Shown piece by piece: positions 5,155 through 59,247 of a stretch of 64,000 nt of DNA. Source of the DNA: Candidatus Omnitrophota bacterium (GTDB taxonomy: Bacteria > Omnitrophota > Gorgyraeia > Zapsychrales > JANLHA01). How positions within the stretch are numbered: the first letter of the stretch is position 1; the number at the start of each line of letters is the position of its first letter. The stretch is from assembly GCA_022711395.1 (NCBI GenBank), contig JAKLFA010000001.1:195277-259276 (forward strand). The letters are read 5' to 3'. The position numbers were made by a program, and so were the translations under genes. The notes beneath the pieces are model-generated. The model saw only the letters and a list, made by a program, of their open reading frames with translations, was not told the origin of the DNA and did not search any database.

Positions 5155-5223
5155 ATTGTATCTGTGGGCAAAATCAAAACGTCTTCTTAGTTGGACGGCA
5201 ACCCAAAACCAAAGATCTGGCAG

Positions 5224-8200: not shown

Positions 8201-8679
8201 TCGATCTTTTTAAAGAAGCTGGCCTTCCTGAGACAGGAAAGACCGTGGTGTGTGATGGTTTCAGCGGGCAGCCCTTTGATCAAAAAGTCACGGTGGGTTA
8301 TATCTACCTGATGAAATTGAACCATCTTGTTGATGAAAAGATCCATGCCCGTTCGATCGGTCCGTATTCGCTGGTTACGCAGCAACCGCTCGGAGGCAAG
8401 GCTCATTTCGGTGGTCAGCGCTTTGGTGAAATGGAAGTTTGGGCTTTGGAAGCGTATGGCGCCGCCTATACATTGCAGGAAATGTTGACCGTCAAGAGCG
8501 ATGACGTCCAAGGGCGCAGCCAGATTTATGAGGCGATCGTCAAGGGTGAGCAGCGTTTAGAGACGGGCATTCCCGAATCATTCAATGTCTTGGTGAAAGA
8601 GCTTCAGGGATTGTGTTTGGATATCCAGCTGGAGCAAGAGAAGCCGGCTGTTACCGAAGAAAAAGCGGATAAAAAATAG
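5224..8679 (+). CDS. rpoB: DNA-directed RNA polymerase subunit beta
   Basis: Unmistakable RpoB sequence. ATG at 5224; an in-frame TTG at 5191 is an alternative start. A compact form of about 1150-1160 aa. Confidence 0.95.
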
Positions 8680-8726
8680 CAGGTTACGATACAGAGCACA
8701 ATGATCCGATTAAGGAGAATTTTATA

Positions 8727-11700
8727 ATGGCCAAAAAACAGGATATCATAAATCAAGATCGAATTACGATCAAGATTGCATCGCCGGATACGATCCGTTC
8801 GTGGTCGCAAGGGATGGTGAAAAAGGCCGAGACGTTGAATTATCGAACCTTGAAACCGGAAAAGGATGGTCTCTTTTGCGAGCGTATTTTTGGGCCGGTC
8901 CGTGATTGGGAATGCAATTGCGGGAAATATAAGGGGATCAAGTTCCGCGGAATCACCTGCGACCGTTGCGGCGTTACGGTCACGAGGTCTTCTGTCCGTC
9001 GTGAACGCATGGGCCATATTGAATTGGCTTGCCCGGTAACGCATATCTGGTTCTATAAGGCGGTTCCCAGCCGCTTATCGGCCCTCCTGCAGGTGTCCTT
9101 GAGAAATCTTGAAAAGCTCATTTATTATGAAGAATACGTGGTTATTGATCCGGGTGATGCGCCTTTGAAGTATAAGCAATTCTTGAGCGAAGATCAGTAT
9201 CAAGAGGCGGTTGTTAAATATGGTGGCGCGTTTAAGGCCAAGATCGGCGCTGAGGCGGTCAAGGATCTGTTGGAGAGCATCGAGCTTGATAAACTGAGCA
9301 AGGAATTACGCAAAGAACTTGCTGGAATGAGCTCGCTGAGCGCTAACGCCAAAAAGATGGCCAAGAGCTTGAAGATCATTGAAGATTTCAAGATTTCCGG
9401 GAACAAGGCTGAATGGATGGTCTTGGATGTGCTTCCGGTCATCCCGCCGGATTTGCGTCCTTTGGTCCCTCTAGAAGGAGGGCGATTTGCTACTTCAGAC
9501 CTGAATGATCTTTATAGACGGGTCATTAACCGCAATAACCGTCTTAAGAAATTGATGGATTTAAATGCTCCGGAGATCATTATCCGCAACGAAAAGCGCA
9601 TGCTTCAAGAATCGGTGGACGCGCTTTTGGATAATGGCCGTCACGGACGCCCGGTCTTGGGTTCCGGCAACCGTCCTTTGAAATCCCTGTCGGATATGCT
9701 CAAAGGCAAGCAGGGCCGTTTCCGCATGAACCTTCTTGGTAAACGCGTGGATTATTCCGGGCGCTCGGTCATTGTCGTTGGACCGACGCTGAGATTGCAT
9801 GAATGCGGCCTTCCTAAGAAGATGGCTTTGGAACTTTTTGAACCGTTCATTATCCGTAAATTGCGGGAAAAAGGTTATGTGCACACCATTAAAGGTGCAA
9901 AACGGATGGTTGAACGCGCCAAGGTGGAGGTTTGGGATATCTTAGATGAGGTCATTAAGGACCACCCGGTCCTTTTAAACCGTGCTCCGACGCTGCACAG
10001 ATTGAGCGTCCAGGCCTTTCAGCCGGTGTTGGTGGAAGGGAAGGCGATCAAGCTGCATCCGTTGGTTTGCGCGGCCTTTAACGCGGACTTCGATGGGGAC
10101 CAGATGGCGGTTCACGTGCCGTTATCGCTGGAGGCCCAGATCGAATGCCGTTTACAAATGCTTTCTGTGAACAATCTTTTTTCTCCGGCGGATGGCCGTC
10201 CGATCATGTCGCCGACCCAGGACATGGTGTTGGGGTTGTATTACCTAACGAAGGATAATGGGCATGAACCGAAAGGGATATTCGCTTCGGCGCAGGAAGT
10301 CATTATCGCCTTTAACGACAAAGTGGTCACGCTGCATGATGCGATCCGCTTGCGTTTGGCAGGGTCGGTCTGGGGTGACGAAAAGCCGTCTTTGATCATT
10401 TCCCAGGAAAAGGCGCTTATGGGCGAATCCGCAGAAGGCGTTGCGGCAAATAGTCCGGTTAAGGCCCAGATTATTGAAACAACTGTTGGACGGGTTCTTT
10501 TCAACCAACTGCTGCCTGAAGGCTACGGGTTCGTCAACGAACTTTTGGACAAGAAACGAATCGGCGCCGTTATTTCTGATTGTTATAAGCGTTTTGGGCA
10601 GGAAACAACGGTGCGGTTGTTGGACCGGATCAAGGAATACGGGTTCTTCGCTTCGACAGAGGCGGGTATTTCGATTTCGATCCCGGACCTGACAAGCCCG
10701 AAGGATAAAGAGAAATATATTAAGAAGGCAAAAGATGAAGTGGCCCGCGTTGAAGACCAGTACCACAAGGGGATTATCACCGGCCGCGAACGATATAATA
10801 AGATCATTGATATTTGGACGCATACGACGGAAAAGTTATCTGACCTGGTCTTCAAGCAAATGGACCCGTTCAATCCGGTTTTTATTATGGCGGATTCAGG
10901 GGCGCGGGGTTCGCGTTTGCAGATCCGTCAGCTGTCGGGCATGAGAGGGCTTATGGCAAAGCCTTCAGGTGAGATTATTGAAAACCCGATCACGGCCAGT
11001 TTCCGTGAAGGATTGACGGTGCTGGAATATTTTATTTCTACGCACGGTGCTCGCAAGGGTTTGGCGGATACAGCTTTGAAAACAGCGGACGCCGGGTATT
11101 TGACCCGTCGTTTGGTTGACGTCGCCCAGGAAGTTGTCATCACCGAAGAGGACTGCGGGACCGTGAATGGGATTACGGTTTCTGCGATCGTCGAGGGTGA
11201 TGAACTGGTCGTGAGCTTGAAAGAGCGTATTATTGGTCGTGTTGCGCTGGACAACATTGTTGATGTTATTACCGATCAAGTCGTTGTTGAAGCGGGACAA
11301 GAGATCACGGAGGAAAAAGCGGCGGCGATCGAACAGCTTGGTATTGAAAAGGTGCGTATCCGCAGTGTTCTGACCTGTGATTCCGATCGCGGTGTCTGCG
11401 TGAAGTGCTATGGCCGCAACTTGGCGACTCAGCGTATTGTTGAGATCGGAGAATCGGTCGGTATTATTGCGGCACAAAGCATCGGTGAGCCCGGGACCCA
11501 GTTGACCATGCGGACCTTCCACATCGGTGGTACAGCTTCGCGTGCCGTGGAACAATCCCATTATCAATCAAAGAACGATGGTTTTGTGAAGTACCATCAG
11601 CTGCGCGTTGTTGAGCGCAATGCTGAATTCGTCGTCCTGAACCGTAACGGATCGATCAGTATTAATAATGAGTTCGGACGGGAGTTTGAACGCTATCAAC

Positions 11701-12845
11701 TGCCGCAAGGCGCGACTTTGAAGTTTGCTGATGGGGCGGCTATTAAAAAAGACGATGTTTTCGCGACGTGGGATCCGTATACTGTTCCGATCATCACGGA
11801 GGTCAAAGGTGTTGTAAATTCGGAAGATATCATCGGGGATGTCACCGTTCAGGAAGAGCTGAACCCGATCACGGGTATCACGGAACGCGTTGTTGTGGAG
11901 CACAAGCCCCAATACCATCCGCAGATTATCATTACGGATGAAAAGAAGGAAGTCGTTGGTATTTATTCGATTCCTGTTGGCGCCCATATTTTGGTCAATG
12001 ACAAGAGCGAGGTTCGCGCTGGCGATCTGATCGCCAAGATTCCGCGAGGCGTAGGCAAGACCAGAGACATTACAGGCGGTCTTCCGCGGGTTGCGGAATT
12101 GTTCGAAGCTCGTCGGCCGAAAGACCCCGCTGTTATCAGCGAGATCGATGGTGTCGTCGAGTTCGGGGAGGACCGTAAGGGTCTTCGAACGATCATCGTG
12201 AAGAGTGAGACCGGTATGGCGAAGGAATATACCATTCCGCACGGGAAGCATCCGAACGTTTATAAAAGTGATCGTGTTTTTGCCGGCCAGCAGCTGACCG
12301 ACGGACCGGTTGTTCCGCATGATATTTTGAGGGTCTGTGGCGACAAGGTCCTTCAGGAATATCTCTTGAATGAAGTTCAGGAGGTCTATCGCTTGCAAGG
12401 TGTCCGGATCAATGATAAGCATATTGAGCTGATCATTTCACAGATGTTGAAAAAGGTTCGGATCGATGATGGGGGAGATTCTCCGTTTTTAGTCGGTGAG
12501 CAGATCGACCGTGTTCAGTTTAAAAAGGTTAATGATGAAATAATTAAAAAGAAGGGCAAGCCTGCGCAGGCAACGCCCTTATTATTAGGGGTCACAAAGG
12601 TCTCTTTGACGACGGACAGCTTTATATCTGCTGCGAGCTTCCAGGAAACAACTCGGGTGTTGACAGAAGCTGCATCTAGTGGTAAGATTGACCTTTTACG
12701 TGGCCTGAAAGAGAACGTCATCGTGGGACATTTGATCCCTGCGGGGACTGGATTAAAGTATTATCAAGAAGTGGAAATGGTGAAATATGCCGACGATACA
12801 GCAGTTGATCAGAAAGAGCAGGAACCTCAAGTCCAAGAAGACTAA
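8727..12845 (+). CDS. rpoC: DNA-directed RNA polymerase subunit beta'
   Basis: RpoC sequence with the NADFDGD catalytic motif and zinc-binding cysteines. Confidence 0.95.
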
Positions 12846-38831: not shown

Positions 38832-39493
38832 ACCTGTATGTTGTTATTCCGGCGTTGAACGAAGAGGCTTATGTCGGCGAGATTGTCAGCGGGATCTGCC
38901 GCTTGGGTTTTGATGTGGTGGTCATCGATGATGGGTCGCGGGATTCGACGGGGGAGACGGCTCGGCAGAACGGGGCGCATGTTATCCGTCATGCCATTCG
39001 ACAGGGCAAGGGCGCGTCTTTGCGGGATGGATTCCAGCACGCCTTAACCCAAGGGTGTGATGCGGTCGTTACCATGGATGGCGATGGACAGCATGCGGTC
39101 TCGGACCTGCCGGCTTTTATTGAAAAATTTGAGAATGAACCCGGGTATGGTGTTATCAATGGTTCCCGTATGCTTTCTTGCCGGAGCATGCCGAAGGTGC
39201 GCTTGTACACGAATCGTTTGATGTCGGCTTTGATATCCTGGCTGTGCCGTCAGCGCATCGCGGATACTCAGTGCGGGTTTCGTTTGATCCGGGCGGACGT
39301 GCTGAGAAAGGTCACGTTGCGTTCGGCTGGTTTTCAGATCGAAAGTGAACTGCTGATCGAGGCGGCCCGTGCGGGTTTTACGATCGGTTCAGTTCCAATC
39401 CAGACGATCTACTCGGATGAAAAAAGCAGCATTAACCCTGTTGTCGACACGTTTCGTTTTATTGGGTTTTTCATCAACCAGCTTTTTCGGTGA
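38828..39493 (+). CDS. GT2 polyprenyl-phosphate sugar transferase (DPM1/ArnC/GtrB-like)
   Basis: VVIPALNEE, DDGSRDST and DGDGQH (DxD) motifs. Confidence 0.8.
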   Translation: MNLYVVIPALNEEAYVGEIVSGICRLGFDVVVIDDGSRDSTGETARQNGAHVIRHAIRQGKGASLRDGFQHALTQGCDAVVTMDGDGQHAVSDLPAFIEKFENEPGYGVINGSRMLSCRSMPKVRLYTNRLMSALISWLCRQRIADTQCGFRLIRADVLRKVTLRSAGFQIESELLIEAARAGFTIGSVPIQTIYSDEKSSINPVVDTFRFIGFFINQLFR

Positions 39494-40206
39494 ATAGAAT
39501 GTCTTATCAATATTTATTATCATTGGAACGCAAGATCTTTCGCTGGGCATTGGTAACGTCTTTGGTGTTTCATTTGGTCCTGCTGCTGGTGGCGTTTCTG
39601 ACGAACATTCATTACAAAAAAAGAGTCTCAAAAGCAAAAGACATTGAAGTGGTCTATCAGACCCTTCAGCAGGAACAAAAGCAGGAGCCCTTTCGGGCAG
39701 ACCCGCTTCAAAGCGTCGGTCATAAAAAAAAGGTGGACTCGCCCAAGGTGTTGATCAAGCCGAAACTCGACGTGGATGTTCCATTCAAACCGCTGGACAA
39801 AGCCCCCGTGCAGGTGCCGGACCAGGGCCAACCTTTGGCTAAACCGTTGGTGTCCAGTTCAAAACGCCAGATCGCCGTTCCTTTGCTGCAGTCTGAAAAG
39901 ATCTCGAACCCTCGTTATTTGACTTATCATGAACAGGTTCGGGACAAGATCCGCAACAGGGCATATCAGTATGTTGATAATCCCCGTTTTGAGGCGGGTG
40001 AGGTCTATTTGACATTTGTCCTGGCGTCCGATGGCGAATTGAAGGATGTCCAGATCGTCCATGAGCGTAGCAGGGCTAACCCCTTTTTGAAAAGCGTTGG
40101 CCTGCGAAGCATCAAGGAGTCTGCGCCGTTTCCGGCGTTCCCAAAAGATTTGAACTATCCGGAGCTCACCTTTAACGTCGTGATTTCTTTTGAGGTCGGG
40201 GAATAG
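39490..40206 (+). CDS. TonB-family protein (N-terminal TM anchor, Pro/Lys-rich spacer, C-terminal TonB domain)
   Basis: Single N-terminal TM helix and a proline-rich linker (KPKLDVDVPFKPLDKAPVQVPDQGQP). The C-terminus fits the TonB_C beta-alpha-beta pattern. Confidence 0.6.
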   Translation: MNRMSYQYLLSLERKIFRWALVTSLVFHLVLLLVAFLTNIHYKKRVSKAKDIEVVYQTLQQEQKQEPFRADPLQSVGHKKKVDSPKVLIKPKLDVDVPFKPLDKAPVQVPDQGQPLAKPLVSSSKRQIAVPLLQSEKISNPRYLTYHEQVRDKIRNRAYQYVDNPRFEAGEVYLTFVLASDGELKDVQIVHERSRANPFLKSVGLRSIKESAPFPAFPKDLNYPELTFNVVISFEVGE

Positions 40207-41765: not shown

Positions 41766-41874
41766 TTGTGGCGGGGCTAATGCCGGATTTTTTGATGAAT
41801 GATTTTTGTTGAAATAAAAAAATTTTGTTATATACTTAATCGTAACCTATCGGTACGATTTATGCTACCGAAGT

Positions 41875-41905
41875 AATAAAGAACGAATGTTCTTTATTTT
41901 TTTAT
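41875..41905 (+). terminator. Terminator-like perfect 10-bp inverted repeat with a T-tract, in the AT-rich spacer upstream of the sensor kinase
   Basis: AATAAAGAAC gaat GTTCTTTATT followed by ttttttatttcttt. The stem is AT-rich, so it is weak. Confidence 0.35.
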
Positions 41906-41964
41906 TTCTTTAAGAGTGAAAAATTTCACGATATATCAATATATCCCATATTTTTTACTGAAGT

Positions 41965-43824
41965 GTGATAAAAATAATGATAAATTTCAAAAAACCAACT
42001 AAACTTTGGACAACAATCCTGATTGGGATCTTTGCGATGGTCCTTTTTTGGGGTTTATTTATGTCTGGTTACGGTTTTTTTGTTGTGAAGCGCTATATTT
42101 TTAAGGAAGCCCGGCAGACGCTTGAACAGAATCTCAATACAGTCCGCAACGTTTATAAAGAGCGGATGAATCAGATGAGGATCGCGTTTAATATTGTTAA
42201 TCCTGATTCTGATCTGAACGCCGTGAAAAACGAACTAAGCCTGGATTATTTTGGAGTTGTGAACGCCGCTCAGCAAGCGACATCCAGCAGTGAAGTTGTT
42301 CAGGAAGCCTTTTTGACCGGGCAACCCGTCGTTGCAAGCCGCATCATGAGGAAAGAAGAACTGGAGCGTATTCGGCCAGGAATGATTGTTCCGATGGCAT
42401 CGGCCTTGATAGCAAGTCCTGCAGAACAGGCGCAGCTTCAAGATGCTCTCAGCATGGAATTTGCACGGCCGATCTTAGGGCCGGATGGGCGGGTTGAGAA
42501 AGTCCTTTACGGCGGGGAAATTGTGAATAATAATTTTAATTTTATTGACCATATCGTCAACGTGGTCTTTGAACCGAAGGCATATGATGGAAAACCTTAC
42601 GGGATCATTACGATCTTTCAAAATGATGTGAGGATCGCAACGAATGTTTTGGATAAGGGCGGCGAGAGGGCGGTTGGCACAAAGATCTCAAAGGATGTTT
42701 ATAATAAAATTGTTGAACAGCGCGGTTCTTGGCTTGGCCGGACGTTTGTCGTGACGGATTGGTATATTGCGGCCTGCGAGCCCATTTTAAATGTCCGGGG
42801 AGAAATTATCGGAGGCCTTTATGTCGGGATTCTGGAAAAGCCGTTCCAATTGCTGGGAGAAAAGCTTTTCCTCGGGCTTTTGATGATCATTATGATGGGC
42901 GTCATTCCGACACTGATCTTCGCTTATTTTTTAGCGAATTCCTTGGTGCGCCAGTTGACGCAGATGGTCCGAACGACCGTGAAGATCGCGCAAGGGGAGC
43001 TGGAAAGTAAGATCGACACGACGGGCTTATCTGTTCATGAAATGAAAGAGCTGGGTGAATCGATCAATTATATGTCAGAAAAGCTGGTTGAAAGGGAAGA
43101 GAGTTTAGAAGAAACACACAAGCGTTTGGAGGTCATGAATAAAAGGTATTTGGACCTGATCGGCTTTGTTGCTCATGAACTGAAAGGGATCTTGTCTTCG
43201 ATCGTTCTAAACACATACCTTTTACAGAAAAAGATCCTGGGGGATATCAATCCCAAGCAGGAAAGTGTCCTGAAGTCCATGGGCAGGAATCTGGATTATT
43301 TGACCGTCACGGTGAAGAATTTTCTTAATCTGAGCAGGATCGAAAAAGACGAACTGAAGGTCGATAAACAGGAGATCTTTCTCAAAGAGCATCTGCTTGA
43401 TCCGGCCATTGAGTCTTTTCAGCAGCAGGCGGAAGAGAAAAATATTATGATCTCTAATACGGTCGACGCGCGTTTGAGCGTGCGGGTTGATTCGGGATTG
43501 ATGCAGATCGTCGTGAATAATTTATTGAGTAATGCGGTCAAATATGGCCTTGAGGGGGGGAAGATCAGGATCACGGCAAAAAATCAGGAAGACATGCTGG
43601 AGGTTGAGGTTTATAATGACGGAGAACCGATAGCCAGTATTGATATGGACAAGTTGTTCAAGAAGTTCTCCCGGGTCCTTTATCGCGGACAGGAAAGCGT
43701 GAAAGGAACAGGGATCGGGCTGTTTATCTCAAAAGAGATCATTGAACGCCATGGCGGTCATATTTGGGTGGAACCTGCCTTGAAGGGGAATTCGTTCAAA
43801 TTTCAGATACCAAGATCAAATTAA
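41965..43824 (+). CDS. Membrane sensor histidine kinase (two TM helices flanking a ~250-aa extracytoplasmic sensor domain, HAMP/coiled coil, HisKA, HATPase_c)
   Basis: H-box FVAHELKGIL, N-box NLLSNAVKYG, G1 NDGEPI, G2 GTGIGLFISK. GTG at 41965 or ATG at 41977. Confidence 0.88.
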   Translation: MIKIMINFKKPTKLWTTILIGIFAMVLFWGLFMSGYGFFVVKRYIFKEARQTLEQNLNTVRNVYKERMNQMRIAFNIVNPDSDLNAVKNELSLDYFGVVNAAQQATSSSEVVQEAFLTGQPVVASRIMRKEELERIRPGMIVPMASALIASPAEQAQLQDALSMEFARPILGPDGRVEKVLYGGEIVNNNFNFIDHIVNVVFEPKAYDGKPYGIITIFQNDVRIATNVLDKGGERAVGTKISKDVYNKIVEQRGSWLGRTFVVTDWYIAACEPILNVRGEIIGGLYVGILEKPFQLLGEKLFLGLLMIIMMGVIPTLIFAYFLANSLVRQLTQMVRTTVKIAQGELESKIDTTGLSVHEMKELGESINYMSEKLVEREESLEETHKRLEVMNKRYLDLIGFVAHELKGILSSIVLNTYLLQKKILGDINPKQESVLKSMGRNLDYLTVTVKNFLNLSRIEKDELKVDKQEIFLKEHLLDPAIESFQQQAEEKNIMISNTVDARLSVRVDSGLMQIVVNNLLSNAVKYGLEGGKIRITAKNQEDMLEVEVYNDGEPIASIDMDKLFKKFSRVLYRGQESVKGTGIGLFISKEIIERHGGHIWVEPALKGNSFKFQIPRSN

Positions 43825-43838
43825 CAGAAGGTGGTGAC

Positions 43839-44717
43839 ATGAAAAACAAGATTTTACTCGTGGACAATGACAGGGATTTCTTGGAAGCGACAGCGATCCT
43901 TTTGGAATCCGACGGCTATGATGTGGTCAGGGCATCGAACGGGCAAGAAGGTTTTCAAAGGGCCAAGGAAGAGTCTCCGGACCTGATCCTGCTGGATATG
44001 ATGATGACGTATAAGACGGAAGGGGCGGAAATGGCAAAGGCCCTTGCGGCGGACGCGGCGACACACAATATCCCGCTGATCCTGATCACCGGGGCTAAAA
44101 AGGAGATGGGGTTTCCCTTTGAGATCAAGCCTGACGAAAAGGACCTGCCGGTCAAGATGGTGATCGAAAAACCGATCCAGCCTGAACGGCTGCTGAGCAC
44201 GGTGAAGCTTTTCATTAAGAAGACCGGCCTTGAACACCGCAGTTTTGTTGGAGAGATCGACGCTCTTGTTGACAAATGGAGCGGCAAAGACGGGAATCTT
44301 ATCATGATCCTCCACGAGATCCAGAATCATTACGGGTATGTTCCGCGGGAGGCCGCTTTTGAACTTCGCCGGCTGTTAGGTATTCCGCTGGCGCGTATTT
44401 ATGAAGTGATCACGTTTTATAATTATTTCAAGCTCGATCCGCCGGGAAAGCATTTGATCTCGGTCTGTATGGGTACGGCGTGCTATTTGAAAGGGGCGCC
44501 TGGCTTATTATCGGAGTTGAAAAATTTATTGAATGTTGAAGAGGGGCAGACAACTCCGGACGGTCTTTTTCATCTTCAGATCGTGCGTTGTTTAGGGTGC
44601 TGCGGCCTGGCTCCGGTCATGACGGTCGATGGGAAGATCTATGGTAAGGTCAAGAAGGAAAACGTGATCAATATTTTATCTGAATATTCAAAAGAAAAAA
44701 TGGAAGTTGTTCAATAA
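43839..44717 (+). CDS. hydC: Receiver (REC) domain fused to the NuoE/HydC-type [2Fe-2S] thioredoxin-like subunit of an [FeFe] hydrogenase
   Basis: Residues 1-125 form a CheY-like receiver (DND acidic pocket, phospho-acceptor Asp in LILLDMMM, Thr in ILITG, Lys in IEKPI). Residues ~160-293 are NuoE-like with C-x4-C (CMGTAC) and C-x3-C (CLGCC). The RBS GAAGGTGGTG lies 14 nt after the kinase stop. Confidence 0.85.
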   Translation: MKNKILLVDNDRDFLEATAILLESDGYDVVRASNGQEGFQRAKEESPDLILLDMMMTYKTEGAEMAKALAADAATHNIPLILITGAKKEMGFPFEIKPDEKDLPVKMVIEKPIQPERLLSTVKLFIKKTGLEHRSFVGEIDALVDKWSGKDGNLIMILHEIQNHYGYVPREAAFELRRLLGIPLARIYEVITFYNYFKLDPPGKHLISVCMGTACYLKGAPGLLSELKNLLNVEEGQTTPDGLFHLQIVRCLGCCGLAPVMTVDGKIYGKVKKENVINILSEYSKEKMEVVQ

Positions 44718-44728
44718 AGGGGGAATCG

Positions 44729-46531
44729 ATGGTGAAGTTGAGCATGGCCCAGTTGGACAGTTTTAAACGGAAAAAAGAGGATGGGGTCGTCGTCAGGGTC
44801 GGCATGAGCTCTTGCGGGGTTGCCGCCGGTTCAAAAGACACCTTTCAAAAGATCCAGTCCGAACTTAAAGCCAATGGAATTGACGCGGAGTTGATGAAGT
44901 GCGGATGTTTGGGAATGTGCTATGCCGAACCCTTGGTCGAGATTGAACGGCACGGGGTTTTGGAAGGAACTTATGGTAATGTTGACGCGAAGGCGGCCGC
45001 AGAGATCATTCAGCATCATCTTGTGAAGGGAAATCCGCAGGCTGCGGAGATCTCGAAATACCGCATCGTGACGTCTGAAAAGCAGATCAGGATCGTTCTG
45101 CGTAATTGCGGGGTGATCGACCCTGAGAATATCGAGGATTATTTGGCGCAGGACGGCTATCAGGGATTAAAGAAGGTCTTGACCAAAGGGGCCCCGGACA
45201 AGGTCCTGGAGGAGCTTAAACTGAGCGGTTTGCGAGGGCGCGGCGGCGGCGGATTTCCGACGTGGATGAAGTGGAGTTTCGCGCGGGGAGTGCAGGCAGA
45301 CCAAAAATTCATCATTTGCAATGGCGATGAAGGAGACCCGGGTGCGTATATGGACAGAAGCGTCCTGGAAGGGGATCCTCACTCGGTCCTGGAGGGAATG
45401 ATCATAGCCGGTTTCACGGTGGGCGCCAGCCGTGGTTTCTTTTATATTCGGGCGGAATATCCTTTGGCTATTGAGCGAATCCAGAAAGCGATCGACCAGG
45501 CGCATGAGTATGGCCTTTTGGGTGAGCATATCTTGGGAACGAAATTCTCCTTTGACCTGGAGGTTCGATTGGGGGCCGGCGCTTTTGTCTGCGGTGAAGA
45601 GACGGCGCTGATCGCTTCGATCGAAGGCAAACGGGGATGCCCAACGCCGCGTCCGCCATATCCTTCGGTGAAGGGGCTGTGGGGAAAACCGACGGTTATC
45701 AATAATGTGGAAACATTGGCCAATGTTCCGGTCATCCTTAACAAAGGCGGCGAGTGGTTCTCCCAGATCGGGACCAAGGATTCGAAGGGGACCAAGGTCT
45801 TTGCCTTAACAGGAAAAGTGAAGAATACCGGACTTGTCGAGGTCCCTATGGGGATCACATTGCGAGAGATCGTTTTTGATATTGGCGGCGGAACTGCCAA
45901 CGGCAAAAAGATCAAGGCGATCCAGACCGGAGGGCCTTCCGGAGGAGTCATTCCTGAGCAGTTTTTTGACACGCCGGTTGACTATGAGAACCTTCAGAAA
46001 CTGGGTTCGATCATGGGCTCCGGCGGCATGATCGTTATGGATGAGGATGACTGCATGATCGATATCGCGAAATTTTATCTGGGATTTTGTGTTGATGAGT
46101 CATGCGGAAAATGCGCGCCTTGCCGTATCGGCGGCACGCAATTGCTGGGTTATTTGAAGGACATCTCGGAAGGCAAGGCTTCCGAGGATGATCTGGCAAA
46201 GATGCGCAGGATCTCTGTGGCAATGCAGAAGGCCTCGTTGTGCGGCCTGGGGCAGACGGCCTCCAATCCTGTTCTTTCGACATTGCAGTATTTTGAAGAG
46301 GAGTACCGGACGCATATTAAGGACAAGCGTTGTCCGGCAGGAAAGTGCAGCCAGCTTTTCAACTACAGCATCATTCAGGAGAAATGCCGTCGCTGCACCC
46401 TTTGCCAGCGCAACTGTCCTGTGGGGGCGATCCCCGGGGACCGGGAGCAGGGATTTTGGATCGTACCGGAAAAATGTATCCGCTGCGGGCAGTGTTTTGA
46501 AGTTTGTAAATTTGGAGCGATCAAACGATAG
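44729..46531 (+). CDS. hydB: NuoF-like NAD(P)H/FMN-binding subunit of an [FeFe] hydrogenase (HydB)
   Basis: N-terminal thioredoxin-like 2Fe-2S domain, GRGGGGFPT FMN/NADH motif, ESCGKCAPCR N3 cluster motif, and two C-terminal 4Fe-4S ferredoxin motifs. Confidence 0.9.
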   Translation: MVKLSMAQLDSFKRKKEDGVVVRVGMSSCGVAAGSKDTFQKIQSELKANGIDAELMKCGCLGMCYAEPLVEIERHGVLEGTYGNVDAKAAAEIIQHHLVKGNPQAAEISKYRIVTSEKQIRIVLRNCGVIDPENIEDYLAQDGYQGLKKVLTKGAPDKVLEELKLSGLRGRGGGGFPTWMKWSFARGVQADQKFIICNGDEGDPGAYMDRSVLEGDPHSVLEGMIIAGFTVGASRGFFYIRAEYPLAIERIQKAIDQAHEYGLLGEHILGTKFSFDLEVRLGAGAFVCGEETALIASIEGKRGCPTPRPPYPSVKGLWGKPTVINNVETLANVPVILNKGGEWFSQIGTKDSKGTKVFALTGKVKNTGLVEVPMGITLREIVFDIGGGTANGKKIKAIQTGGPSGGVIPEQFFDTPVDYENLQKLGSIMGSGGMIVMDEDDCMIDIAKFYLGFCVDESCGKCAPCRIGGTQLLGYLKDISEGKASEDDLAKMRRISVAMQKASLCGLGQTASNPVLSTLQYFEEEYRTHIKDKRCPAGKCSQLFNYSIIQEKCRRCTLCQRNCPVGAIPGDREQGFWIVPEKCIRCGQCFEVCKFGAIKR

Positions 46532-46553: not shown

Positions 46554-48299
46554 ATGGGAAAAGCAATTATCAATGATATCCCGGTCGAATTTGAAGACGG
46601 GATGACGATTTTAGACGCGGCGAAGCGCGTCCAGGTCAATATCCCGACCTTATGCAAACATCCGGATGTGGCGGCCAGCGGCGCCTGCGGGATCTGTATC
46701 GTAAAGGTCAAAGGGACCCGAAAGATGATCCGGTCCTGCTGCACTCCGATCGAGGAGGGGATGAATATCATCACCCACGATACGGAGCTTGTGGCGACCC
46801 GCAGGACGGTTTTAGAGCTGATCCTTTCCAATCATCCCAATGATTGTTTGAAGTGCGGCCGCAACAACAACTGCGAATTGCAGAACATGGTCGCTGATTT
46901 CGGGATCCGTGAGGAGAATTTCAAAAAGGTCGTCCGGGAACTTCCGATCGACCGTTCGACCAAGACGATCATCTTGGAGCCCAGCAAGTGCATCAAGTGC
47001 GGGCGTTGCGTCACTGTCTGTCAGGAAACACAGAATGTCTGGGCGCTTTCGTTCTTGGAACGCGGTGTTGAGACCCGTATTTCAGCCGCCGGGGACATCA
47101 AGCTTGGGGAATCGCCCTGTGTGCGCTGCGGCCAGTGTTCTGCTCATTGCCCGACGGGGGCGATCTTTGAACATGATGATACGATCAAGGTCTGGGAAGT
47201 TCTGCAGGACCCGGACAAGCATTGCGTCGTTCAGATCGCGCCTTCGGTGCGCGTCGCGGTCGGCGAGGGCTTCGGAATGAAGCCGGGCACGAACTTGACG
47301 AAAAAACTTTACGCGTTATTAAGACGGCTTGGTTTTAAGGCGGTCTTTGACACGAATTTTTCGGCGGACGTGACGATCATGGAAGAGGCTACTGAATTTG
47401 TTCAGCGTTTTGTGTATAAAAAAGGACCGCTGCCTTTGATCACGACCTGCTGTCCGTCATGGGTGGATTTTATGGAGAAGTTCCATACGGACATGATCGA
47501 GCATTTTTCTTCCGCCAAATCGCCTCAGGAGATCATGGGGGCCTTGGCCAAGACGTATTATCCTGAGACCCGTAAGATCGATCCGTCCAAGGTCGTGGTG
47601 GTTTCGATCATGCCTTGCACGGCCAAGAAGTATGAGATCAGCCGAAGCCAAGACATGTTCGCCTCAGGCTATCAGGACACGGACCTTGTCTTGACGACCC
47701 GTGAACTGATCCGCATGATCAAACAGGCGGGGATCGATTTTGAGAACCTTCCCGATGAGGATCCTGACCATTTGATGGGTGATTATTCCGGCGCGGGGAC
47801 GATCTTCGGGACGACCGGAGGCGTTATGGAGGCGGCGCTGCGCACGGCCTATCATTTCATCACAAAAGAGAACCTGAAGGATGTGGAATTTATGGATGTG
47901 CGCGGGCTCGAAGGCGTTAAAGAGACGTCGGTCACGATCCAGGGCTCAAAGGTAAATATCGCTGTTGCGCATGGTTTAAGTAATGTAGAATATGTCCTGA
48001 ACAAGGTCCGCCAGGCCAAGGAAAACAATGAGCCATTGCCGTATCATTTTATCGAGGTCATGGCCTGTCCGGGCGGATGCATCGGCGGCGGCGGACAACC
48101 GTATGGTGTCAGCAATGAAGTGCGCGCGGCGCGTGCACAGGGCCTTTATGAGGATGATGAAGCCAGCGTGACCCGTTGCAGTCACGACAACCCCTTCGTA
48201 AAGAAGCTTTATGCTGAATACCTTGGGGCTCCGTTAAGTGAGAAGGCTCATCATTTGCTGCACACGAAATACAAACCGCGGCCCGAATATAAGCGTTAA
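46554..48299 (+). CDS. hydA: [FeFe] hydrogenase catalytic subunit (HydA, M3-type with an N-terminal 2Fe-2S domain and 4Fe-4S domains)
   Basis: H-cluster motifs L1 TTCCPSW, L2 MPCTAKKYE, L3 EVMACPGGCIGGGGQP. N-terminal plant-type ferredoxin cysteines and 2x C-x2-C-x2-C-x3-CP. Confidence 0.93.
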   Translation: MGKAIINDIPVEFEDGMTILDAAKRVQVNIPTLCKHPDVAASGACGICIVKVKGTRKMIRSCCTPIEEGMNIITHDTELVATRRTVLELILSNHPNDCLKCGRNNNCELQNMVADFGIREENFKKVVRELPIDRSTKTIILEPSKCIKCGRCVTVCQETQNVWALSFLERGVETRISAAGDIKLGESPCVRCGQCSAHCPTGAIFEHDDTIKVWEVLQDPDKHCVVQIAPSVRVAVGEGFGMKPGTNLTKKLYALLRRLGFKAVFDTNFSADVTIMEEATEFVQRFVYKKGPLPLITTCCPSWVDFMEKFHTDMIEHFSSAKSPQEIMGALAKTYYPETRKIDPSKVVVVSIMPCTAKKYEISRSQDMFASGYQDTDLVLTTRELIRMIKQAGIDFENLPDEDPDHLMGDYSGAGTIFGTTGGVMEAALRTAYHFITKENLKDVEFMDVRGLEGVKETSVTIQGSKVNIAVAHGLSNVEYVLNKVRQAKENNEPLPYHFIEVMACPGGCIGGGGQPYGVSNEVRAARAQGLYEDDEASVTRCSHDNPFVKKLYAEYLGAPLSEKAHHLLHTKYKPRPEYKR

Positions 48300-48374: not shown

Positions 48375-49871
48375 ATGTCTACTTCAGAAGTAAAGCAACC
48401 CACATGGCTTGAAAAGCGCGTCCGTCAGGATGAGATCGACAAATATCTTGTGGACGGAAAGGATTTCATCCCGCAGGAGGAGATCCCGCTTTTGCTGGAG
48501 CGTCACAAAAACCCGGACGCGAAACAGGTCCGGGATCTTTTGGATAAATCTTTGGCTATCCAGAGCTTGACCCCGGAGGAGACCGCGGTTCTTTTGAATG
48601 TCGAGGACCCGCAGCTTCTGGCAGAAATGAAATCGGCCTCCCTGAAAGTGAAATTGAAAGTTTACGATAACCGCATCGTGACCTTCGCGCCGTTGTATCT
48701 GGGAAGTTATTGTGTCAACAATTGCAGCTACTGCGGATTTAAAACTGACAACATCAACGCGGAACGTAAAGTTCTCACGCCTTCGGAGATCGTGAAAGAG
48801 GTCGAAGCGCTTACCGGTAAGATCGGCCATAAACGGCTGATCGTTGTCTATGGCGAGCACCCCCGAAACGATGTTGATTATATTGTTTCGAGCATCAAGA
48901 CGATCTACAGTGTCAAGGCGAAGGTCAAGGGCCATGAATCCTGCATTCGCCGGGTCAATGTGAACGCTCCGCCGTTCTCAATTGAGGATCTGAAGAAGAT
49001 CCATGACGCGGGGATCGGGACGTATCAGGTTTTTCAGGAGACCTACCACTTGCCGACGTACCGAAAGGTCCATCCGGCCAATACGATCAAGGGGAATTAT
49101 CGCTGGAGATTGTATTCCATGCACCGCGCGCTGGAAGCTGGCATTGATGATGTGGGGATCGGCGCGCTCTTCGGGCTGGCTGACTGGCGTTTTGACGTGA
49201 TGGGCCTGGTTTACCATTCTCTCGAATTGGAAGAGCGTTTCGGGATCGGTCCGCACACGATCTCCTTCCCGAGGCTGGAACCGGCACTTAACGCCAACAT
49301 GGATCAGTTCAGCAAAACCCGTGTTTCGGATGAGGATTTTAAAAAATTGATCCTGGTCCTGCGCCTGGCGGTTCCACACGCCGGGATGATCATCACCGCG
49401 CGCGAAAGCGCGCAGATCCGCAAAGAGGCGATCGAAATGGGCATCACCCAAACGGATGCCTCTTCCAACATCGGCCTGGGCGGTTATCAAAAAGAGAAAT
49501 CTGCGCAGGACGAAAAGAACCAGCAGTTTATCCTGGGAGATACCAGAAGCCTCGAGGACGTGATCGCTGAGTTTGCCCGCATGGGCTATATTACGTCCTT
49601 TTGCACGGCTGGTTACCGCTGCGGTCGCACGGGGGAGTGCATCATGGAACTTCTGCGCAACGGCCAGGAAGGAAAATTCTGCAAGCTCAACGCTGTCCTG
49701 ACATTTAAGGAATGGGTGGATGATTTTGCCAGTGAAGAAACGCGCAAACTTAGCCTCCCCATCATCGAGCGTGAGATCGCTCAGATCCGCCAGACCAATC
49801 CGCAAATATTCGACCTCTTCATGGAATACTACCGCCGCATCGAAGCCGGTGAGCGGGACCTGTATCTTTGA
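48375..49871 (+). CDS. hydG: Radical-SAM [FeFe] hydrogenase maturase HydG (ThiH-like tyrosine lyase)
   Basis: C-x3-C-x2-C (CVNNCSYC). About 500 aa, with a Cys-containing C-terminal region (CTAGYRCGRTGEC...C). Lies directly downstream of hydA. Confidence 0.65.
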   Translation: MSTSEVKQPTWLEKRVRQDEIDKYLVDGKDFIPQEEIPLLLERHKNPDAKQVRDLLDKSLAIQSLTPEETAVLLNVEDPQLLAEMKSASLKVKLKVYDNRIVTFAPLYLGSYCVNNCSYCGFKTDNINAERKVLTPSEIVKEVEALTGKIGHKRLIVVYGEHPRNDVDYIVSSIKTIYSVKAKVKGHESCIRRVNVNAPPFSIEDLKKIHDAGIGTYQVFQETYHLPTYRKVHPANTIKGNYRWRLYSMHRALEAGIDDVGIGALFGLADWRFDVMGLVYHSLELEERFGIGPHTISFPRLEPALNANMDQFSKTRVSDEDFKKLILVLRLAVPHAGMIITARESAQIRKEAIEMGITQTDASSNIGLGGYQKEKSAQDEKNQQFILGDTRSLEDVIAEFARMGYITSFCTAGYRCGRTGECIMELLRNGQEGKFCKLNAVLTFKEWVDDFASEETRKLSLPIIEREIAQIRQTNPQIFDLFMEYYRRIEAGERDLYL

Positions 49872-51916: not shown

Positions 51917-51960
51917 AAAAAAGGCGCGGTGAAATAGTTCACCGCGCCTTTTTCTTTTTT
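51917..51960. terminator. Bidirectional rho-independent terminator between convergent genes
   Basis: AAAAAA GGCGCGGTGAA atag TTCACCGCGCC TTTTTCTTTTTT. Perfect 11-bp GC-rich stem flanked by an A-tract and a T-tract. Confidence 0.8.
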
Positions 51961-52555: not shown

Positions 52556-53494
52556 TTAAAGAAGATTGAACCTGAGAACTAAAATGATCAACCCTATTAT
52601 AACAGAGGCCGCTCCTCCGTAGATCGCCAGCCCGCATTGCCAGCCCAGTTTGGATAAAAGCTCTTTTTGGTCCTTGTCCGAAATGATGAAGATCCGGCTG
52701 TTGGGGTTGAAGGCGATCACCACATCCGTATGTTCCTCATGCGTGAAGGCGGTCTTGGAGAGGTCTTCTAAAAGCTGTTGTTCTATGCTTTGTGCCGCGA
52801 AGTTCCATTCTTCCTGGCTGATCTCGCCGTCTTTGTTCATGTCGAATTGGGCCATCAGCGCGCGGTCCTGTTTGGCCTTTTCAAGGCGCTCGGCCAGTTT
52901 GGTCCGGTGGTCCTGTAAAAATGTCTGGTTTTTCTGGGCGAAACCCAGAACGTAGACTCTTTCTTGGGGTTTGATGTGCCATTCCGTGAAACGCAGGCGC
53001 CGCTGAAAGCCAAAAAGGCCGCGCGATTTTAGGCCGGAGCGGGTCAGGAAATTTTCGATTTGAGAACTCATGCTTTCAGTCCGCAATTTTTGGTCGATGA
53101 TCATTTCGGCTTTCGCTGGAGAGACCAGGACCCGACCTGTGTCGTCTTTGAGATAAAAGGGAGAGGCCGCACTGTCTCCTTTAGCGATGGTGTCCCAGTG
53201 GGAGTTCTTTCCGTTGGAGTGATATTCTTCGATCTTGTATTTGTAGTAAACGCAAGGAGAGTTGCTGAAGGGCGCGCTCAGGGCCTGATGGCAGTGTTCA
53301 GTCTGGCCGGCGAGCTCGACCTCTCCCATGGCCATGCCCCGGACCGTTGAAGTGGGGATATTCTCGATCATGCGCTTGCGCTTCAGTCGGCTGAACCCTG
53401 TGAAAAATCCCACAAATCCGCCAATGAGCATAAAAAGCCCCAGGACGGCAGGGTCATCCGAATCCGATGAATAATTGCTGTAGAGTAGGAGCAT
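52556..53494 (-). CDS. LemA-associated membrane protein (GIDE-like domain) with a canonical EF-hand calcium-binding loop
   Basis: N- and C-terminal TM helices. DMNKDGEISQEE matches the 12-residue EF-hand loop consensus. 19 nt upstream of lemA on the same strand. Confidence 0.6.
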   Translation of the reverse strand: MLLLYSNYSSDSDDPAVLGLFMLIGGFVGFFTGFSRLKRKRMIENIPTSTVRGMAMGEVELAGQTEHCHQALSAPFSNSPCVYYKYKIEEYHSNGKNSHWDTIAKGDSAASPFYLKDDTGRVLVSPAKAEMIIDQKLRTESMSSQIENFLTRSGLKSRGLFGFQRRLRFTEWHIKPQERVYVLGFAQKNQTFLQDHRTKLAERLEKAKQDRALMAQFDMNKDGEISQEEWNFAAQSIEQQLLEDLSKTAFTHEEHTDVVIAFNPNSRIFIISDKDQKELLSKLGWQCGLAIYGGAASVIIGLIILVLRFNLL

Positions 53495-53660: not shown

Positions 53661-54041
53661 ATGTCATCGGAGAAATCGGTTGATCAATCGTGGAAAGAAA
53701 CCGCCAATCAGGAAAAACAGAAAACCGATCAAGCCTATCAGGAACACAATACAGACTATTCAGAATTTAATTTTATGACCTATATCACAAGCCTTTCGAT
53801 GCAGGCGCTGATTTTTTTGGGAGTAATCGGAAACCCCATGAACGATAACCAGGTCGAGGTGAATTTGGACCAGGCCCGGCTTTTGATCGACACGTTGGCG
53901 ATCCTGAAGGAAAAAACGAAGGGCAATCTCAATAAGGAAGAAGAAGGGCTTCTCAACGCTTCGGTCTATGAACTTCAATTAAAATACGTGGAATTGGCCG
54001 GCGCGACGAAGGAAGAAGGAAAGATCATTCATGGATCGTGA
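53661..54041 (+). CDS. DUF1844-family protein
   Basis: ATG with an AGGAG RBS at 53661. Conserved core FxTxxxSLxxQALxxLGxIxNP ... NLxxAxxxIDxLxxLxEKTKGNL. Confidence 0.6.
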   Translation: MSSEKSVDQSWKETANQEKQKTDQAYQEHNTDYSEFNFMTYITSLSMQALIFLGVIGNPMNDNQVEVNLDQARLLIDTLAILKEKTKGNLNKEEEGLLNASVYELQLKYVELAGATKEEGKIIHGS

Positions 54042-54198
54042 ACTTCTTGAGATCCTGGCCTGTCCGGCTTGTCACGGCGCCATTGCCGAACAGGAAAAGT
54101 TTTTGCTTTGCAAGGGCTGTGGCCTTCGTTATCGCATAGAAGATGGAATAGCGGTCTTGCTGATTGAAGAGGCTCAAGCCGCGCAAAAAGGAGCATAA
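54031..54198 (+). CDS. Trm112 / UPF0434 family small zinc-ribbon-like protein (55 aa, not in the ORF track)
   Basis: MDRELLEILACPACHGAIAEQEKFLLCKGCGLRYRIEDGIAVLLIEEA matches the Trm112p-like consensus (LLxILxCPxCxG ... LxCxxCxxxYPIxDGIPVLL). Overlaps the upstream ORF by ~11 nt. Confidence 0.75.
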   Translation: MDRELLEILACPACHGAIAEQEKFLLCKGCGLRYRIEDGIAVLLIEEAQAAQKGA

Positions 54199-54201
54199 AT
54201 C

Positions 54202-54639
54202 ATGTCGAAAGTCTTGGTCATCCATGGCCCGAATTTGAACCTTTTGGGGCAGCGTGAGAAGGATATTTACGGGGACACAACCCTTGAGGATATTAACGCG
54301 TGCTTGAATGAAGTCGCGACAGACGCAGATCTTGAGATTGAAACGTTTCAGTCCAATCATGAAGGGGATATTGTGGATAAGATCGGCCAGGCCAAAAAGG
54401 AAGGATTTGCCGCGATCCTTATTAATCCCGCCGCCTACACGCACACAAGCGTTGCCATCCGTGACGCGGTCGCAGCGGTTGAGCTGCCGACCGTGGAGGT
54501 CCATTTGTCTAATATTCACGCGCGGGAAGAGTTCCGACATAAATCCTTGATCGCTCCGGTCGCTTATGGACAGATCAGCGGGTTTGGAGTGGATAGTTAT
54601 GTTCTGGGGCTTGAGGCGATCATCGGGCTGATCGCTTAA
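54202..54639 (+). CDS. aroQ: 3-dehydroquinate dehydratase type II
   Basis: [14 protein letters not shown] and [12 protein letters not shown] motifs. Confidence 0.92.
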
Positions 54640-54704
54640 GCGGCATTGCATTTTATCGTCTACTCGAGCATTCTCAAAAAAGAGGCTTTCTTAGCGCTCA
54701 CGTC

Positions 54705-58282: not shown

Positions 58283-58639
58283 ATGAGTGAGATCAAGAAT
58301 GTTGATTTGGGGTCCGTCAAGATCCATAAAAAGGTCATTGCGGATATCACGGCGAATGCCGTGGCTGAGATCAAAGGGGTCCATTTGGTCGCGCCGACGA
58401 TGGCAGACGAACTTCTCAAGATGCTTGGCCTGAGAGTGCATCCTGCTATCACGGTCGATATTGAGAAGACGGGGCAGGTCTCGGTCGATGTGCGTGTCTG
58501 TGTGGAGTACGGCAAGCGTATTCCGGATATCGCGACCCAGGCTCAGGATGTGATCCGGCAGGCCATTGAACAGACGGTCGATATAGATTTAAAGGATGTT
58601 AATGTCAATATCCATGGGATAGAGAGGGGGGGGCAATGA
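58283..58639 (+). CDS. Asp23/Gls24 family (alkaline shock protein 23-like)
   Basis: Asp23 (DUF322) pattern. Confidence 0.75.
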   Translation: MSEIKNVDLGSVKIHKKVIADITANAVAEIKGVHLVAPTMADELLKMLGLRVHPAITVDIEKTGQVSVDVRVCVEYGKRIPDIATQAQDVIRQAIEQTVDIDLKDVNVNIHGIERGGQ

Positions 58640-59247
58640 AATTAATAGTCCGGTTAGGCGTGATGTTTTATTGTGTGGTGACCCTGCTGCTGGCATTTTT
58701 TCTGGTAATGATTGCCTTGCCGCTTATGTCGATCGAGGAAATGTCCGCGATCTTGGAAGCGATCAATCAAAGCGTGCAGGTCCGTTTGGTCCTTGGCCTG
58801 GTCGCATTGATCCTTGTTTTGAAGGCGTATACTTTCGCGAAGCTGATCTCCGGGGACCAGCAAAAGGGCAAGAACATCGCTTTTGATAATCCCGAAGGCC
58901 GTGTGTATGTTTCGTTGGTGGCTATTGAGGATCTTGTTCGTCGGGAACTCTCCTCTTTGGAGGAGGTCAAGGACGTGCGCGCATCGGTAATCGCCAAAAA
59001 AAGCGGCGACCTTTATATTCAATCGCGGGTTTCTCTTAATGGTGATATCAATATTCCTGAACTGACTTCGCGGCTGCAGACGATCATTAAATCCAAGATC
59101 CAGAACATGATCGGCTCTGAACTGGGAGTTGAGGTGGATGTCGATGTCGTCAAGATCGTTCCTCGCAACAAGGACAAGAAGGTCAAGGTCACGGAAGCTG
59201 CCAGTGAAACAAAGCCCAACGTTCCTTTTGAAGGATACCGGGCATAG
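58636..59247 (+). CDS. Membrane-anchored Asp23-like protein (AmaP-like)
   Basis: Two N-terminal TM helices followed by an Asp23-like soluble region. Translationally coupled to the upstream Asp23 gene. Confidence 0.55.
   Translation: MKLIVRLGVMFYCVVTLLLAFFLVMIALPLMSIEEMSAILEAINQSVQVRLVLGLVALILVLKAYTFAKLISGDQQKGKNIAFDNPEGRVYVSLVAIEDLVRRELSSLEEVKDVRASVIAKKSGDLYIQSRVSLNGDINIPELTSRLQTIIKSKIQNMIGSELGVEVDVDVVKIVPRNKDKKVKVTEAASETKPNVPFEGYRA

Follow-up and report, generated by a model that had tools for sequence, protein, structure and literature searches.

Introduction

In Cupriavidus necator, a two-component system is devoted to a hydrogenase: its sensor is the regulatory [NiFe] hydrogenase HoxBC, which is cytoplasmic, senses H2 and is bound to the soluble kinase HoxJ, and its output is the NtrC-type factor HoxA. 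Here we analyse a stretch of 64,000 nucleotides (nt) from a Candidatus Omnitrophota bacterium (assembly GCA_022711395.1, contig JAKLFA010000001.1, positions 195,277 to 259,276 of the forward strand), called hereafter the window, in which the gene of a sensor histidine kinase directly precedes the hydC, hydB and hydA genes of an [FeFe] hydrogenase, and in which HydC itself bears a receiver domain (REC). A two-component system dedicated to a hydrogenase would be common to both cases. However, the output of HoxJ/HoxA is transcriptional, through HoxA, whereas the window combines an extracytoplasmic Cache sensor with a receiver placed inside the enzyme.

Links to kinases, phosphatases or PAS domains are found among the sensory [FeFe] hydrogenases of group C (HydS/HfsB type; PMC8542988, PMC11406978). 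As in the window, these systems have regulatory modules in or beside [FeFe] clusters, sometimes together with bifurcating subunits (PMC8542988, PMC11406978). There, however, the hydrogenase-like protein is the presumed H2 sensor, whereas the window encodes a catalytic HydA without PAS domain, a membrane Cache kinase and a receiver on HydC. For the sensor, the nearest described proteins are the formate chemoreceptors PacF, Atu0526 and 8PY0/8PY1 (PMC11804620), which have Pfam families in common with it. Their output is that of a chemoreceptor, versus a kinase in the window, and the window sensor is ~24% identical to them (Foldseek), with the formate-like module second in the chain, abutting the second transmembrane segment (TM2), and an extra module before it. 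Finally, hydrogenase operons repressed by Rex occur in anaerobes (PMC6391272, citing Ravcheev et al. 2012).

A survey of 421 Omnitrophota genomes mentions A3 hydrogenases, and neither a two-component system nor Rex. Response regulators with outputs other than DNA binding are exemplified by CheY, CheB and PleD. The kinase KdpD acts post-translationally on the KdpFABC pump (PMC11018627). These cases resemble what we propose for the window, where the phosphorylation signal would be delivered to a protein machine and not to DNA. In the open-access literature we found no description of a receiver fused to the iron-sulfur subunit of an electron-bifurcating (NuoEF-type) oxidoreductase, be it a REC-HydC or a REC-NuoE fusion, nor of a kinase tied to bifurcating hydrogenases or to Omnitrophota. 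Taken singly, the kinase (HisKA type), the Cache sensor, the receiver and HydABC are ordinary for their families; their combination is not.

Results

A sensor kinase encoded next to a receiver-HydC fusion

The locus probably encodes a two-component system that acts on a subunit of an enzyme and not through a transcription factor, so that HydABC would be controlled by phosphorylation. The kinase open reading frame (ORF; 41965–43824, + strand) is real. Its preferred start is the ATG at 41977, giving 615 amino acids (aa), because a 96% identical homologue (P0121) is also 615 aa long. The protein (41977–43824) has two hydrophobic segments, TM1 (~42001–42087, residues ~9–37) and TM2 (~42844–42948, residues ~290–324), enclosing an extracytoplasmic region of ~250 aa. 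Five Pfam matches each exceed the curated cut-off, with E-values well beyond chance: sCache_3_3 (residues 183–291, E 3e-26, 92 bits versus a cut-off of 28.8), Cache_3-Cache_2 (E 2e-17, 64 bits versus 27.7), HAMP (residues 318–371; 42928–43089), HisKA (residues 394–456; 43156–43344; 27.8 bits versus 26.9) and HATPase_c (residues 508–613; 43498–43815; E 1e-22, 80.8 bits). The phospho-acceptor of the H-box AHELK is His400 (43174–43176), and HELKG is near-invariant across 55 kinase homologues. The N box reads NLLSNAVKY (at 515), the G2 box GTGIG (at 577) and the G1 region YNDGEPI, in agreement with a preliminary description of this DNA that had credited the kinase with a full catalytic core. Judging by its DHp and HATPase_c boxes, both present, the protein is a sensor histidine kinase of the HisKA type.

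The last base of the kinase stop codon is 43824, and the ATG of the following gene is at 43839. A terminator scan of the 14-nt gap (43825–43838, + strand) revealed no terminator-like site. The ribosome binding site (RBS, GAAGGTGGTG) is within it, so that the figure of 14 nt, given earlier as the distance from the kinase stop codon to the RBS, holds as the spacing to the ATG and not as the distance to the RBS. This second gene (43839–44717, + strand) encodes a fusion of 292 aa. Its first part (43839–44204) is a receiver (Response_reg, E 7e-16, 58.8 bits) with an intact quintet of D9, D11, D53 (43995–43997), T84 and K111, and its second part (44259–44687) is a NuoE-like, thioredoxin-like [2Fe-2S] domain (profile E 1e-46, 158 bits). 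Five cysteines of the HydC part, C210, C215, C251, C254 and C255, are all family-invariant and presumably include the [2Fe-2S] ligands; C210, C215, C251 and C255 would correspond to the four cluster-binding cysteines of HydC/NuoE proteins. A longer, TTG-started ORF of 317 aa (43764–44717, as in P0001) was rejected, since 36 of 36 aligned homologues begin with MKNK, that is, at the ATG 43839.

The best matches of the fusion in the Protein Data Bank (PDB) were C subunits of HydABC and related Bfu-type complexes. Solved HydC/NuoE homologues among the matches listed measure 85–318 aa (154–189 aa for HydC proper). Every solved HydC/NuoE match is confined to the NuoE part of the query, from ~residue 133 onward, and none of those listed matches the receiver. 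Relative to canonical HydABC (T. maritima, A. woodii, T. kivui), HydA and HydB are clear homologues, as is HydC in its C-terminal 150 aa, whereas the listed solved HydC/NuoE homologues show no match to the receiver of the window.

In an AlphaFold2 (AF2) model of the fusion (predicted local distance difference test, pLDDT, 81; predicted template modelling score, pTM, 0.59), a single predicted helix (residues 115–147; 44181–44279) joins alpha5 of the receiver to the first helix of HydC, with no flexible linker. Because of this direct joint, phosphorylation would be expected to alter HydC within HydABC. The outer lobes of the solved T. maritima complex consist of HydB and HydC (PMC9499530). The HydC cluster adjoins the flavin mononucleotide (FMN) near mobile bridge domains, and the authors deem a role in bifurcation likely (PMC9499530).

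A junction as rigid as the one modelled could transmit either way, and one may imagine that information flows in reverse, the redox state of the HydC [2Fe-2S] cluster altering phosphorylation or dephosphorylation of the receiver, or kinase binding, so that the hydrogenase would report redox. In relatives, a second REC (see below) could carry the output. We find this very unlikely: the window holds no downstream output component, the kinase has its own elaborate and strongly conserved extracytoplasmic sensor, and Rex already gives a redox input in relatives.

Among the larger ORFs (probable genes) between 32354 and 63313, Pfam searches found no helix-turn-helix (HTH) protein, DNA-binding regulator or second REC, which agrees with the earlier statement that no HTH regulator is encoded within 8 kb. 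With the window REC and kinase core as phmmer queries, no second copy of either was found in the 64 kb. Three ORFs of 203–238 aa (39490–40206; 54025–54651, − strand; 58636–59247) had no Pfam match.

Linkage of kinase, receiver and hydrogenase in relatives

Loci were sampled around relatives in species-representative genomes, with contigs around individual proteins added, and were annotated by phmmer with the window proteins as queries; they are designated below by L numbers. The REC-HydC family comprises at least 120 clusters (54–100% identity), whose named members are nearly all Candidatus Omnitrophota, with one 'Aureabacteria'. Close homologues are labelled Candidatus Omnitrophota. D53 is retained in 112 of 121 members, and the D9/D11/D53/T84/K111 quintet in more than 90%.

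Each of the 13 distinct fused loci whose Asp is intact has a kinase homologue immediately upstream. Eleven of these kinases are full length and two (L013, L015) consist of a 230-aa kinase core. Conversely, the three fused loci with another residue in place of the Asp (D53N in L004, D53E in L009 and L089) lack the kinase. In one of them, L009, rex takes exactly the position held by the kinase in other loci and abuts REC-hydC. The association between kinase and intact Asp gave p = 0.0018 in a Fisher exact test that makes no correction for shared ancestry. Among loci with a plain HydC, having no REC fused or adjacent, the kinase was present in 1 of 66 (L040). Kinase and REC-HydC thus co-occur as expected from the preliminary description, and its proposal of a dedicated kinase that signals to the hydrogenase itself gains support from the conserved linkage and the co-loss, both being patterns of gene sequence and order.

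The two short kinases (L013, 9287–9979; L015, 469–1158) are sensor-less cores (DHp and ATPase) without TM, Cache or HAMP, and belong to one sublineage. In L040 (1–2535), the kinase is followed by a 238-nt gap and a 156-aa HydC; tblastn aligns query residues 105–138 upstream of the HydC ORF, and the receiver may have decayed or been frameshifted.

These counts bear on another explanation, in which the receiver is a structural appendage or pseudo-receiver without signalling role, and the kinase is adjacent merely via a shared Rex-controlled operon. The nine of 121 family members that lack the Asp keep the domain, hence some phosphorylation-independent role, and the REC of one distant fusion (L107, see below) looks degenerate. 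However, the D-D-D-T-K quintet persists in more than 90% of members across the whole range of identities, where the Asp has been lost, so has the kinase, and the kinase is essentially missing from clusters without any REC. We regard an idle receiver as highly improbable.

A reverse test was started from the kinase sensor (838 homologues). Close kinase orthologues with enough flanking DNA were all within [FeFe] hydrogenase clusters, for example in Candidatus Velamenicoccus archaeovorus, a Sedimentisphaerales metagenome-assembled genome and five metagenome contigs. Their genes typically follow one another as Rex, kinase, a 119-aa protein, HydB, HydA, HydC, maturases and a standalone receiver of 127–128 aa. 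In the close-orthologue loci that were read (Omnitrophota-type, Sedimentisphaerales), the adjacent genes include no classical DNA-binding response regulator.

Across clusters, the receiver is fused to HydC, encoded by its own gene beside hydC, or located elsewhere in the cluster. A separate REC gene (123–142 aa) lies directly beside hydC in L011, L013, L027, L031, L061, L087 and L092, and a standalone 127-aa REC follows hydA in L001, L002, L006, L007, L010, L014, L016 and L061. This occurrence of the receiver fused to hydC or beside it, a Rosetta-stone pattern, points to HydC as its partner. In the many relatives whose clusters include a standalone REC, the kinase may therefore have two targets. 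Five loci (L011, L013, L027, L031, L061) have two tandem hydrogenase clusters, each with a receiver beside its own NuoE-like gene; one of the tandem clusters has a HydB variant of ~400 aa or 1067 aa.

Distant REC-NuoE fusions

A search of 1.84 billion representatives yielded roughly twelve additional clusters of REC-NuoE fusions, more distantly related, some of which carry the IMG name 'NADH:ubiquinone oxidoreductase subunit E/CheY-like chemotaxis protein'. In L107 (8001–16882), the REC-NuoE fusion, whose receiver looks degenerate, leads a cluster with NuoF-like and Hdr/FlpD-type proteins and no kinase. L108 (2983–8855) encodes a Cache_3_3 kinase with the same pocket residues as the window kinase (see below), a sigma54-type regulator, a REC-REC protein and REC-NuoE, along with NuoF- and NuoG-like proteins; it is a NuoEF-type cluster, not a hydrogenase. 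L109 (8001–9737) encodes a 578-aa tandem (REC-NuoE)x2, followed by NuoF-like and molybdopterin formate-dehydrogenase-like subunits. Three REC-AraC regulators are encoded near it. The RECs joined in L107–L109 to NuoE-type subunits of these other NuoEF-type (Bfu-like) complexes belong to unrelated lineages, which adds to the Rosetta-stone pattern. The receiver motif is the ordinary D-x-K-M-P-x-x-G-G in L108 and L109, versus DMMMTYKTEG in the Omnitrophota family, and because of this difference REC-NuoE fusions probably arose more than once.

L108 shows that such kinases can have a transcriptional partner in another lineage, and its genes suggest a branched form of the pathway. The path in the window might likewise be branched or indirect, the main output of the kinase being a standalone REC or an orphan DNA-binding regulator elsewhere, while REC-HydC would take up phosphate as a secondary target or a sink, or would shape that signal by competition. 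Besides L108, where the kinase adjoins both the sigma54-type regulator and the REC-REC protein, the eight loci with a standalone REC after hydA agree with this, and clusters that pair an unfused REC with the same kinase type are common. Against it, the 64 kb contain no second REC, and loss of the Asp coincides exactly with loss of the kinase. Moreover, fused and free receivers are close paralogues (cross-scores of 110–166 bits), and the unfused single-domain RECs lie beside hydC in many loci, suggesting the same target and not an output through DNA binding. We consider a branched path unlikely, and direct control of HydABC through REC-HydC the preferable reading.

The sensor domain and its candidate ligand

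The AF2 model of the sensor (pLDDT 85, built on a 55-sequence alignment) consists, in order, of a 64-residue helix (TM1 and stalk), an alpha/beta module A (residues 88–182; 42238–42522), an sCache_3_3-like alpha/beta module B (residues ~205–286; 42574–42837), and a helix that runs via TM2 into HAMP. Foldseek matched it to dCache and sCache ligand-binding domains. Of the two sensor types considered at first for this ~250-aa region between two TM segments, Cache is therefore the one supported by Pfam, model and Foldseek, and the four-helix bundle (4HB) was ruled out on the first two. The sole sequence matches in the PDB were 8PY1 (E 7.5e-6) and 8PY0 (E 3.6e-5), both formate-bound sCache domains. 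Among the 55 kinases, column identity is 78% in module B versus 54% in module A, and conservation of module B is also well above that of the TM helices and HAMP.

Published formate-contact residues (PMC11804620) were transferred onto the kinase via HMMER alignments, and their conservation was scored in the 55 kinases. The predicted pocket in module B is composed of T212, R219, T222, T235, C267 and Y282. Four of these are invariant (55/55): R219, equivalent to R118 of the formate sensor (PacF R142), T212 (formate-sensor T105), T222 (PacF T145) and T235 (PacF T158). Position 267 (42775–42777), equivalent to the hydrogen-bonding Y167, is Tyr in 53 of 55 and Cys in the window kinase and P0121, and position 282, equivalent to the pocket-floor F182, is Tyr in 55 of 55. 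The window kinase thus carries the Arg/Thr/Thr signature of formate sensors (PMC11804620), and has C267 and Y282 instead of the hydrogen-bonding Tyr and pocket-floor Phe of the formate subfamily. The presence of C267 in the window kinase and its 96% identical relative may signal a changed ligand specificity.

Because the PDB sequence matches are all formate-bound sCache domains and the Arg/Thr/Thr signature is retained, formate or a comparable very small anion is our best guess for the ligand, in preference to H2. The external cue supposed in the preliminary description is in line with a Cache sensor on the outside, whereas H2, one of the cues it named, is not what the conserved pocket points to. 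A formate signal would make physiological sense, formate and H2 being interchangeable electron carriers in anoxic communities. Our confidence in formate is nevertheless lower than in phosphorylation control of HydABC, and three observations weigh against it. The pocket-floor Phe (R3 F182), which in formate sensors keeps out larger ligands (PMC11804620), is replaced by Tyr in all 55 kinases; the hydrogen-bonding Tyr is replaced by Cys in the window kinase; and the formate-like module appears membrane-proximal by chain connectivity in the model, whereas PacF binds formate in its distal module (PMC11804620).

Transcriptional control

A palindrome resembling a Rex operator, GAGTGAA-AAAT-TTCACGA (41914–41931), ends 46 nt before the kinase ATG 41977 (its last base being 41931). 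Of the 14 positions that the Rex operator consensus TTGTGAANNNNTTCACAA specifies (PMC6391272), it matches 11. Two copies of the core GTGAA-N4-TTCAC are present in the window, versus 0.04 expected. The second match, at 51929, is not a Rex site, as it lies in the middle of a terminator hairpin with a 16-bp stem, where two genes converge. Over 1.38 Mb of loci, 10 of 12 core matches are located 37–235 nt upstream of rex, kinase or hydC, and eight related loci have the core at this distance from rex or hydC, in better copies than that of the window. The eleventh match (L043) is inside the longest hydC ORF and has the same sequence as the L042 site, 37 nt upstream of hydC; the twelfth is the terminator hairpin of the window. 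A rex gene (Put_DNA-bind_N and CoA_binding) is immediately upstream of the kinase in most related loci, and phmmer found no Rex homologue in the 64-kb window.

Because the operator-like site precedes the kinase and rex adjoins it in most relatives, transcription of the window operon is probably Rex-controlled, and the two-component system would be a separate layer. With the Rex-repressed operons of other anaerobes, the orthologous clusters share a flanking rex and preceding TTGTGAA-N4-TTCACAA-like sites; the window differs in its imperfect operator and in having no rex within 64 kb, and Rex leaves the kinase and the REC unaccounted for. The earlier view that the kinase has no DNA-binding partner stands for the close-orthologue loci, but not for L108, and the Rex-like site in front of the kinase qualifies it further. 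A promoter candidate upstream of the kinase is a sigma-70-like TTGAAA-16-TATACT (41809–41836, + strand; 10 of 12 consensus matches). It is weak, a consensus match only, the count of promoter-like sites in the scanned region being not above the shuffled expectation.

The hydrogenase genes and their surroundings

Downstream of REC-hydC, on the + strand, come HydB (44729–46531), the NuoF-like FMN/NADH subunit, and HydA (46554–48299), the catalytic [FeFe] hydrogenase, of M3 architecture, both assigned by Pfam, the former also by PDB matches and the latter by motifs. HydB begins with a 2Fe-2S-like region and carries a double [4Fe-4S] domain at its C-terminus; in the PDB it is best matched by the B subunits of Bfu-type enzymes, HydB of T. 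kivui, A. woodii and T. maritima among them. HydA contains the H-cluster motifs TTCCP, MPCTAK and EVMACPGGCIGG, and its best PDB matches are 7q4v (iron hydrogenase HydA1, E 1e-166) and 8a6t (electron-bifurcating hydrogenase subunit HydA1, E 1e-163). By gene composition and motifs, the HydABC genes appear to be of the electron-bifurcating type (group A3 / Bfu). A group C sensory hydrogenase was rejected on account of the M3 architecture, the intact TTCCP and the lack of a PAS domain in HydA. A gene of 113–122 aa between hydC and hydB in L002 (10891–11241) and many other loci corresponds to the N-terminal part of the window HydB, a domain which is fused in some lineages and a separate gene in others.

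The maturase HydG (48375–49871, + strand; radical SAM and BATS by Pfam) starts 75 nt after hydA. It is the only one of the three H-cluster maturases in the 64-kb window; neither hydE nor hydF was found there, though they are clustered in most relatives. The gaps between kinase, REC-hydC, hydB, hydA and hydG are 14, 11, 22 and 75 nt, on a single strand. Next after hydG are a diacylglycerol kinase gene and an acyl-CoA dehydrogenase-like gene.

On the upstream side, terminator-like hairpins within 41769–41905 set the kinase apart from a glycosyltransferase gene: a GC hairpin with a T-run (41769–41785, + strand) and an AT-rich hairpin, AATAAAGAAC-GAAT-GTTCTTTATTTTTTT (~41875–41905, + strand). The first strong terminator found downstream of the kinase in the scan is intrinsic, with a 16-bp stem and T-runs on both sides (51918–51953), and is likely the outer limit of the transcription unit. 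It is bidirectional and sits between the convergent acyl-CoA dehydrogenase-like and LemA genes. A GIDE and EF-hand protein (52556–53494, − strand) adjoins the LemA-family gene. Farther away, 5191–12845 and its surroundings contain ORFs of 1162 and 1372 aa plus many small ORFs on the same strand; these sizes, and they only, suggest an RNA polymerase and ribosomal-protein region.

Discussion

The sequences show the domain make-up, the intactness of the catalytic and phospho-acceptor residues, an operon-like spacing, and conserved linkage with co-loss. From these we infer a course of events that extends to the ligand, to phosphotransfer, and to how and in which direction the enzyme would respond. 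A small extracytoplasmic ligand, guessed to be formate or a similar anion, would bind the conserved Cache module of the kinase. The signal would pass via TM2 and HAMP to the kinase core and lead to autophosphorylation at His400, after which the phosphoryl group would be transferred to Asp53 of the receiver fused to HydC. A change of the alpha4-beta5-alpha5 face could then be passed along the helix to HydC and alter its conformation or pairing in HydABC: either the HydC-HydB contact would change or neighbouring HydC subunits would pair, and activity, direction or assembly would be modulated. In this way H2 production or uptake could be tuned post-translationally, transcription of the operon being set apart, probably by Rex sensing NADH/NAD+.

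Several points weigh against this course of events. It is synteny, and synteny alone, that pairs the kinase with REC-HydC. The co-loss sample is small, with two or three independent events and shared ancestry uncorrected, and the two kinds of replacement in it imply opposite active states, D53E being phospho-mimic and D53N non-phosphorylatable. The pTM of 0.59 leaves the orientation of REC versus HydC uncertain in the model. The second, standalone REC in the clusters of many relatives is a possible main or extra target. Finally, the analysis covers 64 kb of the genome, and an orphan DNA-binding regulator may lie elsewhere.

A bolder version would have extracellular formate serve as a proxy of H2 pressure, read by the Cache kinase, which would gate electron flow or assembly via REC-HydC. 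It would be one case of a general, as yet undescribed phosphorylation control of NuoE-type subunits, arisen independently in hydrogenase, formate-dehydrogenase-like and Hdr-linked complexes (L107–L109). We put this forward tentatively, as an idea that is rather doubtful in its full extent.

It is poorly understood how anaerobes rapidly match their H2 production to the thermodynamic state of their environment. For bifurcating [FeFe] hydrogenases, the controls known so far act on transcription (Rex) or operate via uncharacterised sensory hydrogenases. If the proposed pathway is true, the HydC receiver and the membrane kinase would constitute a direct post-translational switch on a flavin-based electron-bifurcating enzyme. 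Because the HydC cluster sits where bifurcation is thought to matter, phospho-mimic mutants could serve to probe the bifurcation mechanism. Should formate be the ligand, the system would connect the two main carriers of electrons between species in the uncultivated Omnitrophota, which are often host- or partner-dependent.

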